Positions 6,771 through 60,370 of a DNA stretch of 64,000 nucleotides are shown here, piece by piece (within the stretch, counting starts at the first letter, position 1; each line of letters starts with the position of its first letter). The stretch spans positions 7,738-71,737 of the forward strand of contig JBPOIH010000002.1 in NCBI GenBank assembly GCA_052034685.1, read 5' to 3'. A program made the translations under genes and the position numbers. The DNA is from Patescibacteria group bacterium. GTDB taxonomy: Bacteria > Patescibacteriota > Saccharimonadia > Saccharimonadales > CAYUUR01. Under the pieces are notes generated by a model. The model made no database searches. It worked only from the letters and a program-made list of their open reading frames with translations, and was not told where the DNA came from.

Positions 6771-7136
6771 ATGAAACAAAAAGTCGCTGTTATCGAAGAT
6801 GATCTGCCAATCTGTGAGATGTATGAGTTCAAGCTACAAAACTCTGGGTTTGAGGTCAAGACGGCTCACAATGGACAGGATGGCTACAAGCTAGTAGAAG
6901 TCTTTAAGCCAGATCTTATTCTACTGGACCTCAAAATGCCCATCATGACGGGGGACGCCATGCTGCAAAAACTCCGCCAAACAGACTGGGGTGCTAACCT
7001 GCGCGTTATTATCCTGACAAATATTAGCCGCGACGAAGCACCGCACAGCCTCCGCTTCCTAAACGTTGACCGCTATATCGTCAAAGCACACCACACGCCG
7101 CAACAGGTAATAGATATCGTCAAAGAACTCATCTAG
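6771..7136 (+). CDS. Stand-alone response-regulator receiver domain protein (RR1)
   Basis: VAVIEDD...DLILLDLKMP...ILTN...KA is a CheY-like receiver. There is no output domain. Confidence 0.9.
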   Translation: MKQKVAVIEDDLPICEMYEFKLQNSGFEVKTAHNGQDGYKLVEVFKPDLILLDLKMPIMTGDAMLQKLRQTDWGANLRVIILTNISRDEAPHSLRFLNVDRYIVKAHHTPQQVIDIVKELI

Positions 7137-8994: not shown

Positions 8995-9375
8995 ATGGTG
9001 CCAAAAAACAAAACCATCTTACTTATCGAAGACGACGAAGCCATACGCGAAATGTATCGGCTCAAATTTGAGCATTTGGGCGTAGCTATTACAACAGCAG
9101 AGGACGGTAAAGAAGCGCTAAAAATTGCCCTAAAGATCAAGCCGTCTATACTCCTGCTCGACATCAAGATCCCTACTATTGGCGGCGAAGAAGTGCTTGA
9201 AGAACTCCAAAAACACGCTTGGGCCAAAGACATGAAGGTCATCATCCTTAGCAACATCAACGAAAAAGAGGCCCCGGCCAAACTCCGTGAGCTCCACTAC
9301 GACCGTTATATGGTCAAAGCACACTTTACGCCAGCAAAGGTAGTAGCCGCAGTAGCTGAAGTTATTGCCGAGTAG
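8995..9375 (+). CDS. Stand-alone response-regulator receiver domain protein (RR2)
   Basis: ILLIEDDEAIREMY...ILLLDIKIP...ILSN...KA. Confidence 0.9.
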   Translation: MVPKNKTILLIEDDEAIREMYRLKFEHLGVAITTAEDGKEALKIALKIKPSILLLDIKIPTIGGEEVLEELQKHAWAKDMKVIILSNINEKEAPAKLRELHYDRYMVKAHFTPAKVVAAVAEVIAE

Positions 9376-13666: not shown

Positions 13667-14038
13667 ATGTCAGTCAAAATCGCCATTATTGAAGACGATC
13701 AAGCGATTTCTCAAATGTACCGTATTAAGTTTGAGGCGGAAGGTTATAGTGTGGAAACCGCCGAAAACGGCAAGCTCGGGCTAGAACTCTGTGAAAAGAT
13801 GCGCCCAGAGATCATACTGCTCGACCTGATGATGCCAGAAATGACCGGAGACGTCATGCTCGACAAACTCCGTAAAACCACCTGGGGCAAAAGCATCAAG
13901 GTTGTTATCCTTACCAACATGGGCGAACAAGAAATTCCTGAAAGCGTCAAAAAGCTTGGTGTTTCTGCGGTAATCCTCAAGGCCGATATGACGCCGCGCC
14001 AGGTTGCAGAACTCGTCAAAAAACAACTCGGAAACTAA
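13667..14038 (+). CDS. Stand-alone response-regulator receiver domain protein (RR3)
   Basis: IAIIEDDQAISQMY...IILLDLMMP...ILTN...KA. Confidence 0.9.
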   Translation: MSVKIAIIEDDQAISQMYRIKFEAEGYSVETAENGKLGLELCEKMRPEIILLDLMMPEMTGDVMLDKLRKTTWGKSIKVVILTNMGEQEIPESVKKLGVSAVILKADMTPRQVAELVKKQLGN

Positions 14039-18359: not shown

Positions 18360-18385
18360 CATTGGTCGTCCGGAGCGGCTCGGTT

Positions 18386-18544
18386 CCTCGACTTGGCTGC
18401 TTTAGCAGACAAAAGTCGAGGGTTCGGTCACAAGGAGCTCTCGCAGATGCTTGCATCGAGAAAGCAACGCAGTGTGCATTGCCCCTCCTGCCTTGTTTTC
18501 ATAGACGAAGTTTCGGGCCGGCTGAAAGTCGGTCGAGTCCCTCC
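18386..18544 (+). repeat. tRNA-linked structured element E1 (a family-A unit plus a 3' fragment of a family-B unit)
   Basis: It shares about 85% identity over its first 45 nt with the element after tRNA-Pro. It contains GTCGAGGGTTCG (identical to the tRNA-Lys T-arm 5' part), CCCTCCTG-CC and TCGAGTCCCTCC (tRNA-Lys 3' part mimics). Confidence 0.65.
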
Positions 18545-18588: not shown

Positions 18589-18966
18589 ATGAAACGTGGT
18601 GCTTTTGCGGTTATTCTAAAGGGAGATAAGCTTCTATTTGTTAAACCCCCTGATTGGGTATCGCAATTTAGTGGCCATTGGAATTTTCCTGGAGGAGTTG
18701 TCGAACCTGGCGAGTCTCTTGAGGAGGGGGCAAAAAGAGAAGCTTTTGAGGAAACAAACATCGTGTGTGAAATAGAAAGCCTTTTGATGACCGATCACAA
18801 CGAAAAATTCGACACATCCATAGCAATATTTAAAGCAAAGTACATATCTGGAGAAGTCACAATTCAACCAGAGGAAATATCAGAGGCAAGATGGATGACA
18901 ATTGAAGAAGCCCTTAATGAGCCTCTCGCCTTTGACATCAAGCAGGCGTTACTAGCTTTAGCCTAA
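18589..18966 (+). CDS. NUDIX hydrolase
   Basis: Nudix box GGVVEPGESLEEGAKREAFEETN. Confidence 0.85.
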   Translation: MKRGAFAVILKGDKLLFVKPPDWVSQFSGHWNFPGGVVEPGESLEEGAKREAFEETNIVCEIESLLMTDHNEKFDTSIAIFKAKYISGEVTIQPEEISEARWMTIEEALNEPLAFDIKQALLALA

Positions 18967-19022: not shown

Positions 19023-19080
19023 GTGCGTTGCCCCTCCGACCAAAAGTTTCGGGCCGGCTGAAAGTCGGTCGAGTCCCTCC
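19023..19080 (+). repeat. Element E2, a direct repeat of the E1 3' part
   Basis: 19044-19080 is 37/37 identical to 18508-18544. 19023-19037 matches 18474-18488 with 1 mismatch. Confidence 0.85.
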
Positions 19081-19163
19081 TTCCAACGAAAAGATCGAGT
19101 AGTATAACCCGACGACAAACCAGCTTACCGCTATGCTAAAATTACCTAAGAGACCAAACGACA

Positions 19164-35118: not shown

Positions 35119-35496
35119 CTAAGGAGTGTTCGGCTCGGCATCTGCAATAATCTGTTCCATTGCAGTTATTGTATTTGGTCGAGCAAATCGCAGAACTTCT
35201 AATGCCGTCTCAGAGAAACTGCCCATCATTACACGAGCTGCGGCAAGTTTGAAGTCGTCAGACGCGCCTGGTTCATAACTTGCCTCGTCTTCAGGATTGA
35301 ATACGCATGTGAGACTTGCAGAAAAATCACAGGTTTGACATGCAACCCCGTACAGTTCTCCATCGGCACGCTCTTCTATAATGTACCAGCCCATCGTGCA
35401 CTCTTCGTCCTTATCGCACGTAATTCTTTCTCCTGCTTTGTCTTCAAACGCATGATCAAGCTTCCATTCACTAATTGGTTTTTCTATTCCTGCCAT
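35119..35496 (-). CDS. Acidic Cys-rich hypothetical protein
   Basis: ORF only. Confidence 0.45.
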   Translation of the reverse strand: MAGIEKPISEWKLDHAFEDKAGERITCDKDEECTMGWYIIEERADGELYGVACQTCDFSASLTCVFNPEDEASYEPGASDDFKLAAARVMMGSFSETALEVLRFARPNTITAMEQIIADAEPNTP

Positions 35497-44895: not shown

Positions 44896-44957
44896 AGTAG
44901 CGCTATGGGGCAACGGTGCTGCGCCACTTACTCGAAGCGAGCTTCTGCGTGAGGTTT

Positions 44958-45080
44958 ATGGGGATCGGTCACGTTCCGCGACCCCGAAACTTCATCTTTG
45001 AAAACAAGTTTTCAAGAGAAGGTTTCCTTGCAAAATGCCATCAGGCATTTTTCACCCACGACAGTCGTGGGTTCGTTCAC
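44958..45080 (-). repeat. tRNA-linked structured element E3 (family B), downstream of tRNA-His
   Basis: Five hairpins whose arms covary with the copy at 48321..48470. It ends with GATCCCCAT, identical to the tRNA-His T-loop/T-stem 3' part. Confidence 0.65.
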
Positions 45081-45087
45081 TATTCAG

Positions 45088-45131
45088 CCCCAAATAAAAA
45101 CGACCCCATTTGGGATCATTTTTATTTGGGG
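45088..45131. terminator. Long inverted repeat abutting the tRNA-His 3' end
   Basis: ccccaaataaaaa...tttttatttgggg. Confidence 0.5.
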
Positions 45132-45204
45132 CGAGCTATGGGGATCGAACCCACGACCTCCGGAACCACAACCCGGCGCTCTAACCAACTGAGCTAAGCC
45201 CGCC
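45127..45204 (-). tRNA. tRNA-His(GTG) with encoded G-1 and CCA
   Basis: Hand-folded: G-1 opposite C73, anticodon loop TTGTGGT, T-arm GTGGG-TTCGATC-CCCAT. Confidence 0.9.
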
Positions 45205-48320: not shown

Positions 48321-48470
48321 CAGGGATTCGACCTACCTTTGGCAGGCCCAGAACTTCTGCCATGACAACAAGTTGTCGGGTGAAGATTCTCTTGCAAACT
48401 GCAACCGGGCAGCTTTCACCCCGACCCTTGGGGTCGGGAGCTCGAACCACTTAGATAGACAACTCAAAAA
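48321..48470 (-). repeat. tRNA-linked structured element E4 (family B)
   Basis: Homologous to 44958..45080 with compensatory hairpin changes. It ends with TCGAATCCCTG (tRNA-Arg(TCT) has TCGAATCCTGC). Confidence 0.65.
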
Positions 48471-48515: not shown

Positions 48516-48755
48516 CTATAGGGGATGAGTTGATTGGTGTAGAGCTTTTATCTGATCCTTTGAGAGTCTTTTTTTGTCGTTCTCTTCCCATACTCTGCGC
48601 CACTCACCGTATATTTTTTGACGAAGCTCAATATCGCCACCGGCTGCATCATCATATGCATACTGAATCCCACAGCTCGGGCAGATTTCAAATGAATCCA
48701 CGGGATCCAAGTCGCCCCAATCTTCGCCGCATACCAGACATTTGTATTTACTCAT
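48516..48755 (-). CDS. CPCC-type cysteine-rich zinc-ribbon protein
   Basis: CLVCG...FEICPSCGIQYAYDD. TATACT lies 6 nt upstream of the ATG, with no SD. Confidence 0.65.
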   Translation of the reverse strand: MSKYKCLVCGEDWGDLDPVDSFEICPSCGIQYAYDDAAGGDIELRQKIYGEWRRVWEENDKKRLSKDQIKALHQSTHPL

Positions 48756-48812: not shown

Positions 48813-48889
48813 TGGTGCCCCGGGCAGGATTCGAACCTGCGACCTTGAGCTTAGAAGTCTCCTGCTCTATCCAGCTGAGCTACCAGGGC
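48813..48889 (-). tRNA. tRNA-Arg(TCT), CCA encoded
   Basis: Hand-folded: GCCCTGG/CCGGGGC acceptor, loop CTTCTAA, T-arm GCAGG-TTCGAAT-CCTGC. The anticodon stem has two mismatched end pairs. Confidence 0.8.
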
Positions 48890-49142: not shown

Positions 49143-50474
49143 ATGGATCAAGAGCCGCAAACTCCTAACACAGACGAACAACCAAGTGCGCCGCCCCCTC
49201 CGACACCGCCAATTAAGACAGAGGATGAGCTGTTTCAATCAGCTGGTCAACACATGGAAATGGAATCATCACCAGAGGTTGCACCAAACCCCGTAGTTGC
49301 GCCCAAGAAATCAAAAAAGAAGCCTATCGTCGCCGTTATTGTCCTAGTGGCATTGCTGGCCGGTGCAGGAGTTGTAGGCTATCTGCTCACGCAGGATCGA
49401 CCGGCCGAGACACCTGCCGCAACCGTACAGCCGGCCGAAACCAAACCCGTAGCACTTACCTACGAGCCAAACACTGTAACTTATACTTACCGCGCAAAGT
49501 CCTCTGACCCCGTAGCAGTATTCACACGTCCAGCTGCCGGTGGTGAACGCAAAGAGATCCAACAACTGACGCGCGACAGCATCATAACGGCTTCAGATAC
49601 TTCTGGGCCGAATAGTGCATTTGTTGACGGCAGCACCATTTACGTCAGCACAGATAACGGAGAAACCTACAAAAAAGTGTTTGAAGGAGAAGCCGGCGCG
49701 CAAGTGACTAGTCTCAAATTTGACGCAGACAATACCGGTTTGGCATTCGGCTACCTTAAAAGTGACAAACCAAAAAATGAAGTCAGAACAATTGATATGT
49801 CTGGCCAGAATGCTAAAACACTATTCACTGCAGACACCGCTGGCGCCTACATATTGGGGTGGTCAAGCAAAGCAGAACGCATGGTATACCAAACAGGCTG
49901 TTACAACTGTGATGGCAGGCCAGAAAACACCTACAGCTTTGATACCAAAAGCACCAAGCGGACTGCGCTACTCGAGGACGTAAAAGCTAATGAACTCGCC
50001 AGCATTTCAGTTTCAAGCGACACATCACTGATGATCTATATTGTAGGCGTCTATCCAACTAACTCTGATGATCCACTGCCGGCGCTGGTCCCACCTTACG
50101 TCGTGAACCTCATAAAGCTAAGCGGCACGGACAAACCTACTGAGATTGCGCGCATTGGTAACGCAGGTGAAAAAAACTCTAACGGTACACTCTTAACCCG
50201 AACAACTCTGGCTGGCTTCACAGCTGGCACCAACACACCGTACTACACCGCCGACAAACAGCTCTTCCTGGTGAAGGCAAACGAAGGACTGCTCTTCTAC
50301 GAATCGGCAGATGTCATAGAAAATGTTGATTACATAAGCGACAAGTATGTCATTTCGAGAACCGGTGACCCGAGTGATTTCACCATGGCTAACTACGATA
50401 CTGCCACCAAGAAATCAGTAACTATCCTCCAAGGTGACAACAACACCACTATCTTTGGCGTCACAACCGACTAA
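49143..50474 (+). CDS. N-terminally anchored extracytoplasmic protein, beta-propeller-like
   Basis: Pro-rich N-terminus, one TM, then repetitive beta-strand-rich sequence. Confidence 0.5.
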   Translation: MDQEPQTPNTDEQPSAPPPPTPPIKTEDELFQSAGQHMEMESSPEVAPNPVVAPKKSKKKPIVAVIVLVALLAGAGVVGYLLTQDRPAETPAATVQPAETKPVALTYEPNTVTYTYRAKSSDPVAVFTRPAAGGERKEIQQLTRDSIITASDTSGPNSAFVDGSTIYVSTDNGETYKKVFEGEAGAQVTSLKFDADNTGLAFGYLKSDKPKNEVRTIDMSGQNAKTLFTADTAGAYILGWSSKAERMVYQTGCYNCDGRPENTYSFDTKSTKRTALLEDVKANELASISVSSDTSLMIYIVGVYPTNSDDPLPALVPPYVVNLIKLSGTDKPTEIARIGNAGEKNSNGTLLTRTTLAGFTAGTNTPYYTADKQLFLVKANEGLLFYESADVIENVDYISDKYVISRTGDPSDFTMANYDTATKKSVTILQGDNNTTIFGVTTD

Positions 50475-50776
50475 TCGAGCTCGATTGCCAAAGACTTTTT
50501 AACCACTTTCTTATTTACAGAATTCTGGAAAAGTCTGTATGCATCACGGTTTTCCTTTACGTATATCATTTTAATCCCAAGTTCTTGATCGCAGCCCTGG
50601 CATACAAGTTTGGATTCTTTTGGCGTCAGGTTGATCATTCTATCAACATACATGCGTTTGAGTGGTCCTGGTCCATCCTTTTGGTATAGACAAATGTGGT
50701 CGTCACATTTCTCACAGGTAACATCGATGATCCTTGACCAGCCTCCTCTTGCTTCGCTGTAAGCGTCTTTTTTCAT
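50471..50776 (-). CDS. Small CxxC zinc-finger protein
   Basis: CEKCDDHIC...CQGCDQ. ATG 50776 is preferred because the track's extension runs into the tRNA-linked repeat. Confidence 0.5.
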   Translation of the reverse strand: MKKDAYSEARGGWSRIIDVTCEKCDDHICLYQKDGPGPLKRMYVDRMINLTPKESKLVCQGCDQELGIKMIYVKENRDAYRLFQNSVNKKVVKKSLAIELD

Positions 50777-50827
50777 AGTGCAATTATAACAAAAGACGTC
50801 GGGAAGGACGTCTTTGTGACTGGCTCG

Positions 50828-50993
50828 TGGTGCGGGTGGAGAGACTATCTGATAAATCAGATGCACCGGCAGCGCATGCTCGGAGCAAGCTCCTGTGCGT
50901 GCACTTTGTCTTCGAACTCGTGCTACGCCCAGTAGAGTTCGATTACTTGTTCACATACCAATCCTTTACTCTCGCGCAGCGAGAACAAAGGAT
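50828..50993 (-). repeat. tRNA-linked structured element E6 (family A-like), ending in an exact 17-nt copy of the tRNA-Gly 3' end
   Basis: 50828-50844 is identical to 50994-51010 (tggtgcgggtggagaga). Internal TCGAACTC...GAGTTCGA is an inverted copy of the T-arm, and there is a GTGCAT box. Confidence 0.7.
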
Positions 50994-60241: not shown

Positions 60242-60345
60242 TGGGTGAAAGGGCAATGCACATGAATCTGTGCGCCGAGCATCTCGGGCAACAGACTCAT
60301 GACCGAACCTGCGACTTTCGTCAGCTAAAGCTGCCGAGTCGAAGG
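60242..60345 (-). repeat. tRNA-linked structured element E5 (family A), downstream of tRNA-Pro
   Basis: Its first 45 nt are about 85% identical to E1. It contains GTCGCAGGTTCG and ends in CCTTTCACCC, both matching tRNA-Pro. Confidence 0.65.
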
Positions 60346-60370
60346 CTCGAGACTTAACTCTTGACCAATC

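Follow-up and report, generated by a model that had tools for sequence, protein, structure and literature searches.

Two copies of a structured non-coding element, here designated B, lie on the minus strand of the window (the whole 64,000-nucleotide stretch of DNA that was analysed), where the earlier note had placed them. The first element, minus-strand 45090-44957, is located 48 nt past an intact tRNA-His gene, and the second, minus-strand 48446-48321, lies downstream of an intact tRNA-Arg(TCT) gene. The His locus, read along the minus strand, comprises the following features.

45127..45203, minus strand: intact tRNA-His(GTG), to which the His unit is attached (ARAGORN; Rfam tRNA, 62.8 bits)
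45088..45126, minus strand: terminator-like hairpin and T-run directly after tRNA-His, the outer stem taking in the CCA end (read from the sequence)
45064..45075, minus strand: antisense arm CGAACCCACGAC, the reverse complement of uninterrupted tRNA-His positions 47-58; 5' arm of hairpin H1 (12-nt exact plus-strand match)
45055..45061, minus strand: TCGTGGG, a direct repeat of the variable loop and T-stem 5' strand of tRNA-His; this is the H1 3' arm and the left flank of B (sequence match)
44967-45059, minus strand: B core, His copy (covariance model R1, 104.6 bits, E = 5e-23; covariation in 90 copies)
44957..44967, minus strand: CGATCCCCATA, a partial tRNA-His 3' fragment, positions 57-67 (T-loop end and T-stem 3' strand); right flank of B (11-nt exact match)
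44902..44952, minus strand: A/C remnant (A/C being a second structured family) and, after it, another tRNA-His fragment, CCCCATAGC (alignment with loci L105 and L093 and with the Lys, Pro and Gly copies of the window; 9-nt tRNA match at 44910)

The tRNA-derived pieces of this unit are found on both strands: positions 47-58 of tRNA-His are present on the plus strand as GTCGTGGGTTCG, and the minus strand has GTCGTGGGT and CGATCCCCATA. The first bases of the His core overlap the left flank, its last base overlaps the right flank, and the junction is ambiguous by 1-2 nt. The hairpin and T-run after tRNA-His were not called by a simple consensus promoter/terminator scan, though they are visible by eye, and in two other loci, L127 and L105, the displaced His 3' fragment has a homologous hairpin after it. 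In the relatives L125, L127 and L092, the right-flank fragment itself continues as far as the 3' end of the tRNA, and the antisense arm recurs in other downstream copies. The A/C remnant is an older unit within the His array. The remaining B-related features of the window belong to the Arg and Lys loci.

48813..48889, minus strand: intact tRNA-Arg(TCT), upstream of the second B copy (ARAGORN; Rfam)
48516..48755, minus strand: 79-aa ORF between tRNA-Arg and the B unit (no Pfam match; compared with L102)
48419..48446, minus strand: antisense arm and H1 of the Arg copy, TTCGAGCTCCCGACCC-caa-GGGTCGGGG (pairs with the left flank and with the TCGAA start of the right flank)
48331-48423, minus strand: B core, Arg-TCT copy (covariance model R1, 81.6 bits, E = 1e-17)
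48321..48331, minus strand: TCGAATCCCTG, a partial tRNA 3' fragment (T-stem compared with the L102 tRNA-Arg)
18493..18544, plus strand: 3' half of B (P2 3' arm, GAAGTTTCGGG, H5) and a tRNA-Lys fragment, TCGAGTCCCTCC (sequence match)
19042..19081, plus strand: second copy of the same B 3' fragment and tRNA-Lys fragment (sequence match)

Three of the loci used for comparison, L102, L105 and L127, are close relatives of the window and have tRNA promoters and tRNAs in common with it, which places the window in a Saccharibacterium. An exact-match look-up of the proteins encoded nearby retrieved one contig, 3.7 kb long, and no series of strains. The T-stem of the fragment in the Arg unit matches the L102-type tRNA-Arg allele (GGGGG/CCCTC), not the tRNA-Arg now present in the window (GCAGG/CCTGC), and a new hairpin/T-run and the 79-aa ORF separate this present tRNA-Arg from its B unit. 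Because the ORF is missing from the orthologous locus L102, it is probably the cargo of a later insertion at the tRNA. The previously reported 3' fragments of B, which lie near tRNA-Lys, are real, and they bracket a NUDIX gene (18589-18966). Elsewhere in the window, tRNA-Gly has a 17-nt exact repeat of its 3' end, with its own hairpin/T-run.

How widespread is this element? In genome and metagenome scans, more than 200 copies of B were recovered, almost only from Saccharibacteria (TM7). A 25-nt pattern from the conserved 3' half matched at least 117 stretches in species-representative genomes; among these matches listed, about 100 come from Saccharibacteria/Saccharimonadales MAGs and the others are fortuitous matches within coding sequence. 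Independently, a pattern taken from the 5' half recovered B in 82 metagenome contigs, and a covariance model built from the alignment of 90 copies retrieved 116 copies in 670 kb of loci. About a dozen of the latter had not been selected by pattern; most of these score 82-97 bits and a few, decayed, 30-70 bits. No credible ORF was found in B, and the description of a covarying family without coding capacity, as proposed from the two window copies, is supported. Only tRNAs pass the Rfam 15 gathering thresholds in the window and, at E <= 10, the regions around both copies and the Lys locus return chance-level matches only, so that the comparison with Rfam that had been suggested yields no family to which B could be assigned; neither is there a match, at this same relaxed cutoff, to self-cleaving ribozymes (hammerhead, twister, pistol, hatchet, HDV-like). 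The literature that we searched contains no description of the element. The second body family, A/C, has the same architecture as B.

The alignment of the 90 copies spans 96 columns, of which those that the search patterns had fixed do not count as evidence of conservation, and defines a core of about 92 nt with the consensus GGGTGAGAAnTGCCnGTGGCAnTTCGCAAGGAAAyCTTC...GAAAACTTGTTTTC...GAAGTTTCGGG, followed by a 7-bp hairpin. RNAalifold folds these copies into three hairpins, namely H2, a long P2 and H5, with 33 pairs, 18 of which show compensatory changes. By our own count, 97.9% of the paired cells across the 90 sequences are indeed paired, compared with 27-49% in slid controls, and double-change cells number 409 versus 133 +/- 9 in shuffles (0/500). 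Taken singly, the His copy folds with an energy of -48.1 kcal/mol (z = -4.7 versus shuffles) and the Arg-TCT copy somewhat better than its shuffles (z = -2.8). Of the five hairpins that the earlier note had drawn, three, H2, H4 and H5, belong to the conserved unit and are supported by this covariation, whereas H1 is a flank-derived palindrome and H3 finds no support. More specifically, H4 is a portion of one long helix that runs on through CTTC/GAAG and a 4-bp extension, the latter covarying among copies (GAAA:UUUC, GGAA:UUCC, AGAA:UUCU, AAAA:UUUU); H3 (AAGG/CCTT), although it can form, does not covary and is in competition with this extension. In the last hairpin, the G.U pair 84:92 is kept in 81 of the 90 copies, and further G.U pairs are common; because G.U pairs are conserved, the strand that folds is the tRNA-sense strand. 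Since this strand folds and the hairpins covary, we infer that B functions while single-stranded, be it ssDNA or RNA. The ends of B, GGTGAG... and ...GTGAC(C), resemble a short direct repeat more than an inverted one, and the alignments reveal no terminal inverted repeats at these ends. Likewise, no target-site duplication was found around B, the flanks aligning to the tRNA with about 2 nt missing rather than duplicated.

The hairpin H1 is real but lies outside the conserved core and is built of local tRNA sequence, and since each H1 derives from its own, different tRNA, the differences between H1 stems that had been taken as compensatory are trivial. The matches of its arms to tRNA-His are likewise genuine; however, whereas the 3' arm is the tRNA-derived left flank, the 5' arm is more than the complement of that flank: it is the uninterrupted tRNA sequence spanning the insertion point, in reverse complement. 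Such antisense arms are the reverse complements of positions 47-58 of tRNA-His in the window, 54-64 plus the stem of tRNA-Val (L080), 48-60 of tRNA-Gln (L061) and 13-21 of tRNA-Glu (L079-L153). In the clearer cases, such as the Arg copy of the window, L061, L109, L118 and L082, the arm pairs with both flanks, and the sense strand can fold back into a hairpin resembling the intact tRNA duplex, from which B bulges. When a duplex across the junction was required strictly, at least 9 pairs were seen in 16 of 97 copies, and a looser table of tRNA matches places an antisense arm in most downstream copies; the duplex-mimicking arm is a frequent, not a universal, feature. Where the arms have diverged (window Arg, L118), the bases opposite B vary and the flank-pairing bases are kept. 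The arm may be a product of the insertion process, or it may be selected for closing the fold.

The association with tRNA genes noticed at the two window loci holds family-wide: according to ARAGORN run on all loci, nearly every true B copy adjoins an intact tRNA gene on the same strand and is embedded in a partial copy of that tRNA. The view that about 100 nt of structured sequence interrupts the 3' region of a tRNA at its T-loop is supported by the tRNA matches and applies to the downstream units, but the family is wider than this, in that, of the 108 B copies within 150 nt of a same-strand tRNA, 60 lie downstream and 48 upstream. These 108 copies span 42 combinations of tRNA and arrangement, and more than 30 isoacceptors have a member of the family next to them, at five or six sub-positions and on either side of the tRNA.

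In the downstream arrangement, the tRNA is followed by a hairpin with a T-run, a spacer of about 10-15 nt, the short antisense arm, a loop of 2-18 nt, the tRNA copy, B, and then the tRNA sequence from the T-loop onward, with a distance of 60-87 nt from the tRNA end to the B start. Matching the variable loop and T-stem 5' strand exactly, the left flank is 7-9 nt long. The 3' tRNA piece measures 9-22 nt (9-11 nt in some copies, including those of the window, and often running through CCA) and in L125, L127 and L092 continues into a second hairpin/T-run. Each downstream unit amounts to a direct repeat of a tRNA segment beside the insert, the tRNA itself being intact. The upstream arrangement starts with a -10-like box and the 5' part of the tRNA, followed by B, 7-9 nt of the tRNA sequence that comes next, a fold-back, a spacer that holds the promoter of the real tRNA gene, and the intact tRNA, the B end being 35-77 nt from the tRNA start. 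At the junctions, about 2 nt of the local tRNA are lacking between the aligned flanks, and B replaces these nucleotides at loop or hinge positions. The insertion point is 54/55 in the T-loop in every downstream unit; upstream, the cut is in the D-loop for Glu, at 25/26 for Gly-GCC, Pro-TGG and Lys-CTT, at 37/38 for Pro-GGG and Leu-GAG, at 46/47 for Val, and in the T-loop for Gln, Gly-TCC and Ser. A minority of tRNA genes carry B: in the loci examined, 1 of 55 non-focal tRNAs has a B-like match by the strict pattern, with covariance-model matches suggesting more.

Several observations speak to turnover of these units. Double B-type inserts, in the D-loop and the T-loop of one pseudo-tRNA, are found for Glu (L192/L219) and Gln (L138). 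Some copies at different tRNAs of one genome are 0.92-0.98 identical, against a background of about 0.79, pairwise values that would be compatible with vertical inheritance and with spread inside a genome alike, and the hairpin variants of B form a recurring mosaic that is consistent with gene conversion. Related His copies differ mainly by paired changes. The His arrays themselves vary: in the window, tRNA-His is followed by the hairpin, B, a fragment, the A/C remnant and another fragment; in L105, by the hairpin, A/C, a full fragment, a hairpin, B and a fragment; and in L127, by the hairpin, B, a full 3' fragment and a hairpin. These differences among three close relatives match the pattern of tRNA-integrating elements, in which new arrivals at a tRNA displace older material outward (10.1101/2020.12.28.424599); partial tRNA copies beside tRNA genes are well-known integration footprints (10.1101/2022.07.05.498093). 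Repeats also flank other sequence, as in L072, where a 205-aa ORF lies between repeats of about 210 nt, and L061 contains a tandem repeat of 182 nt. Among 45 upstream 5' fragments, 28 are identical to the real tRNA or one base off and 17 are decayed or represent another allele, and the tRNA flanks behave as fossils. B is intact beside decayed flanks and diverged spacers, which is partly a matter of ascertainment, the copies having been retrieved with exact patterns. The possibility that the flanks are maintained as mimics or guides of the cognate tRNA was considered and rejected, given the decayed 5' fragments and the mismatches between the Arg unit of the window and its tRNA.

Could all these findings be accommodated by a single scenario? 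The reading that we favour, with a probability of roughly 0.45, is that B is the conserved, structure-constrained core of a non-coding, non-autonomous insertion unit of about 185 nt that targets tRNA sequence in Saccharibacteria. Such a unit would carry the part of the gene that complements what gets displaced, that is, either the 3' end with a hairpin/T-run or a promoter with the 5' part. It could enter by recombination within the shared tRNA segment, in the manner of a Campbell-type single crossover of a small circle; alternatively, whole arrays might be swapped between relatives by homologous recombination. Recombination would rebuild a working tRNA, leaving B against the displaced fragment, and later insertions at the same tRNA would push older units outward. 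The antisense arm would let the sense strand fold so as to mimic the uninterrupted tRNA duplex, with B bulged at the insertion point, and single-stranded B would then be the site for a recombination or processing enzyme supplied in trans. The similarity among copies might be maintained by the requirement for recognition by this enzyme together with gene conversion. Under this scheme, both the upstream and the downstream arrangements, the arrays, the cargo and the fossil alleles follow.

Certain observations fit this proposal less readily. Mobility of the unit is deduced from patterns, no excised or free form, empty site or active enzyme having been observed. With only 9-22 nt of 3' tRNA sequence in common, recombination would be inefficient unless a dedicated enzyme assisted, which counts against insertion, as do the absence of terminal inverted repeats and target-site duplications and the antisense arm, for whose origin the scheme does not account. 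The same combinations of tRNA and position, namely Pro-GGG at 37, the Glu-CTC D-loop and the His T-loop, recur across divergent genomes, a recurrence for which old vertical inheritance accounts no less well than repeated insertion does. Furthermore, the intactness of B beside decayed flanks looks like selection on each copy in place, which would be unusual for a selfish repeat in a streamlined genome.

The main rival reading, possible if on the whole unlikely, is that B is instead a functional structured ncRNA produced together with tRNAs, the partial tRNAs being the historical context of its origin. Under this alternative, the RNA could contribute to tRNA biology, for instance by aiding processing or stability, by serving as a platform for proteins or by acting as a decoy, with the upstream units transcribed from their own tRNA-type promoter and the downstream ones by read-through of the hairpin/T-run. 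The strong covariation and the G.U pair conserved on the tRNA-sense strand are what would be expected of an RNA, and strict co-orientation with tRNAs, the -10-like box kept ahead of the 5' fragment in upstream units, a core that is conserved while spacers and flanks diverge, the retention of B in small, streamlined genomes and the constancy of arrangement for a given tRNA across many genomes all point the same way. However, there is no space for a promoter in the downstream units, which are preceded by a terminator-like hairpin, the element is confined to a minority of tRNA genes, and its flanks are not maintained; truncated copies, double insertions and variable arrays would be unexpected for a housekeeping RNA. 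Of the three functions contemplated in the earlier note, an ncRNA, a folded-DNA recombination site and a T-loop-targeting miniature mobile element, the evidence thus favours the mobile, insertional kind, with the RNA still in contention.

A decidedly improbable explanation derives B from the attachment-site arm region of larger, integrase-encoding islands that have since been deleted, leaving attR-like and attL-like ends. Partial tRNA copies beside tRNAs are the classical footprint of such elements, newer ones pushing older ones outward (10.1101/2020.12.28.424599; 10.1101/2022.07.05.498093), and the exact tRNA-Gly repeat of the window with its hairpin/T-run conforms to this footprint. Islands with a large serine recombinase are, moreover, present at the tRNA loci L054 and L116, but the island junction in L054 is devoid of B. 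No integrase gene was found within or beside the element: the approximately 70 window ORFs include no recombinase, transposase or RT Pfam domain, and protein clustering around 100 loci yields no recurrent recombinase. B is also missing from viral and plasmid sequences, in that the strict pattern gave a single match, by chance, in IMG/VR viral contigs, all 43 matches of the loose 3' pattern in IMG/VR are chance matches in coding DNA, and blastn of B against phage and plasmid collections gave none. Integrases are tRNA-specific and site-specific, unlike a family present at more than 30 isoacceptors, five or six sub-positions and either side of the gene; the covariation of the hairpins argues for a single-stranded role, not for duplex protein-binding arms; and two insertions within one pseudo-tRNA are also hard to square with such relics. 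On closer examination, the L054 and L116 islands proved to be distinct from B.

Very improbable, in our estimation, is the notion that B is the scaffold for an RNA-guided protein, in the manner of omega-RNA or bridge RNA, with the tRNA fragment or the antisense arm as the guide. The geometry does fit, a scaffold of about 92 nt being followed by 9-22 nt identical to the tRNA 3' end and the antisense arm spanning the insertion point, but no TnpA or TnpB genes, which would mark an IS200/IS605-derived element, and none of IscB or IS110 type are found in the window or near the 100 loci. In addition, a single scaffold would have to work with guides on both sides, the supposed guide sequences are decayed or differ from the tRNA now present, and no Rfam family matches. 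Finally, a tRNA intron, self-splicing or protein-dependent, is scarcely credible: B does lie within tRNA sequence at positions like those of archaeal introns, including 37/38, and Patescibacteria tRNAs are known to carry group I introns (10.1101/2025.07.03.662931), but the adjacent tRNA is always intact and intron-less, about 2 nt of tRNA are missing at the junction, there is no match to group I or II families in Rfam (RF00028 included), 92 nt is too small for either group (a group I intron would exceed about 200 nt), and in silico deletion of B restores a tRNA in 1 of 103 copies (32 boundary combinations each), on which ground an intron of working tRNAs was rejected.

Extending the insertion-unit hypothesis beyond B, one could surmise, doubtful as this generalization is, that B and A/C represent a new class of mobile elements that recognize folded tRNA loops in ssDNA or in the tRNA itself and insert there while copying part of the target along with an inverted arm, in effect an insertion system guided by tRNA structure and run by a putative enzyme. 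Whichever interpretation holds, Saccharibacteria have very small genomes and yet keep many B copies beside their tRNA genes. If the units are mobile, they would show tRNA genes being exploited by tiny non-coding units in a new manner, and B would mark sites of single-gene gain and tRNA-allele replacement in a lineage with poorly understood gene flow; if B is an RNA, it would be a widespread, unrecognised tRNA-linked class. In practical terms, the partial tRNA copies around B can mislead tRNA annotation, and the covariance model provides a marker for such loci.

How does B compare with known systems? Like tRNA-integrating elements (genomic islands, tycheposons and cis-mobilisable elements that grow by accretion), B units combine an intact tRNA with a displaced fragment, the newest arrival being nearest the tRNA, with occasional cargo genes between repeats and a replaced tRNA allele, as at the Arg locus of the window. 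Unlike them, B units measure only about 185 nt and lack an integrase, a conserved, structured core of 92 nt splits their tRNA fragment at a set position in a loop, and an antisense arm, both 5' and 3' fragments and more than 30 isoacceptors are seen in one family. With MITEs, REP/BIME, Correia and Rickettsia palindromic elements, B shares small size, multiple copies, the lack of coding capacity and of an enzyme of its own, richness in hairpins and mosaic variants suggestive of exchange between copies; it differs from them in having neither terminal inverted repeats nor a target-site duplication and in targeting the structural loops of tRNA gene sequence, insertion there being accompanied by an inverted arm and a partial target copy.

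The likeness to integron attC and to CTX-phage attP(+) is one of general geometry only: structure is conserved over sequence, one strand folds, and the fold rebuilds a duplex that mimics the target around an unpaired centre, but in the B unit this centre is a 92-nt body of three hairpins, and no recombinase is linked to it. Archaeal non-canonical or transposed introns and split or permuted tRNAs resemble B in the placement of inserts, at the D-loop, 25/26, 37/38, the variable loop and the T-loop; in contrast to archaeal tRNA introns, however, the copies interrupted by B are truncated pseudogenes beside an intact gene, in bacteria, and there is no bulge-helix-bulge motif at B. The group I introns of Patescibacteria tRNAs (10.1101/2025.07.03.662931) come from the same broad lineage and also insert in tRNA sequence, but B, with its 92 nt and its lack of a match to RF00028, is not found in full-length genes and occupies other positions; B is unrelated to them. 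Not found in Rfam or in the literature searched is the combination of a covarying 92-nt body at fixed loop positions, an inverted arm, placement on either side of more than 30 isoacceptors, and the accompanying A/C family.

The structured core B, which is about 92 nt long and interrupts partial tRNA copies beside intact tRNA genes, also exists as a variant without its last hairpin, found at nine of the loci collected for comparison (L083, L094, L121, L133, L167, L179, L188, L221 and L236). In this variant, GAAGTTTCGGG is followed by a TGAGA-hairpin-CGCAAGG segment that repeats the 5' module of B, a repetition which suggests that B is modular or tandem in build. At L164, L227 and L117, B is followed by TGGGCACCA, the final 9 nt of a tRNA acceptor end, and at L227 this combination is present in tandem. 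The acceptor 3' strand may thus be a further position of B insertion.

A second structured family, called A/C, is built on the same plan as B. It opens with an antisense arm (the reverse complement of a local tRNA segment) and a direct copy of the 5' half of the T-arm, continues into a body that contains the covarying hairpin CGCAG-NNGC-TYG-GCNN-CGAG, and closes with the T-stem 3' and acceptor sequence of the tRNA.

A/C elements in the window
18372-18492, + strand, copy downstream of tRNA-Lys
60244-60352, - strand, copy downstream of tRNA-Pro
50845-50962, - strand, copy downstream of tRNA-Gly
44902-44952, - strand, remnant after the B copy of tRNA-His

Of the window's six tRNA genes, five are followed by a hairpin in whose outer stem the CCA end pairs with a downstream TGG (for example CCAAnnnn...nnnnTTGG), a feature shared by most related loci. 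The exception in the window is tRNA-Arg(TCT) (48813-48889, - strand). This gene and its orthologue in a close relative (L102, 5832-5908) have a common promoter. Their anticodon stems and T-stems differ throughout, and the gene body looks to have been exchanged.

Four small genes in the window either directly follow a tRNA gene or are bracketed by repeated units, and may represent cargo acquired at tRNA loci.

Small genes at tRNA loci in the window
48516-48755, - strand, Cys-rich ORF of 79 aa, no Pfam match
35119-35496, - strand, ORF of 125 aa, no Pfam match
50471-50866, - strand, ORF of at most 131 aa with CxxC pairs, no Pfam match
18589-18966, + strand, NUDIX hydrolase gene, the only one with a Pfam match

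Elsewhere in the window, three stand-alone response-regulator receiver genes are located within 7 kb (6771-7136, 8995-9375 and 13667-14038, + strand).

Large serine recombinase genes are present in islands at tRNA-Glu (L054, 5209-6636) and at tRNA-Ser (L116, 1775-3460), the latter ORF crossing the tRNA-Ser gene in antisense. In the window (50828-50993, - strand), the 3' end of tRNA-Gly(TCC) is exactly repeated over 17 nt (TCTCTCCACCCGCACCA) some 150 nt further on, and the repeat has a hairpin and T-run of its own. Together, the gene and this repeat look like a textbook attL/attR pair that encloses only an A/C-type body.
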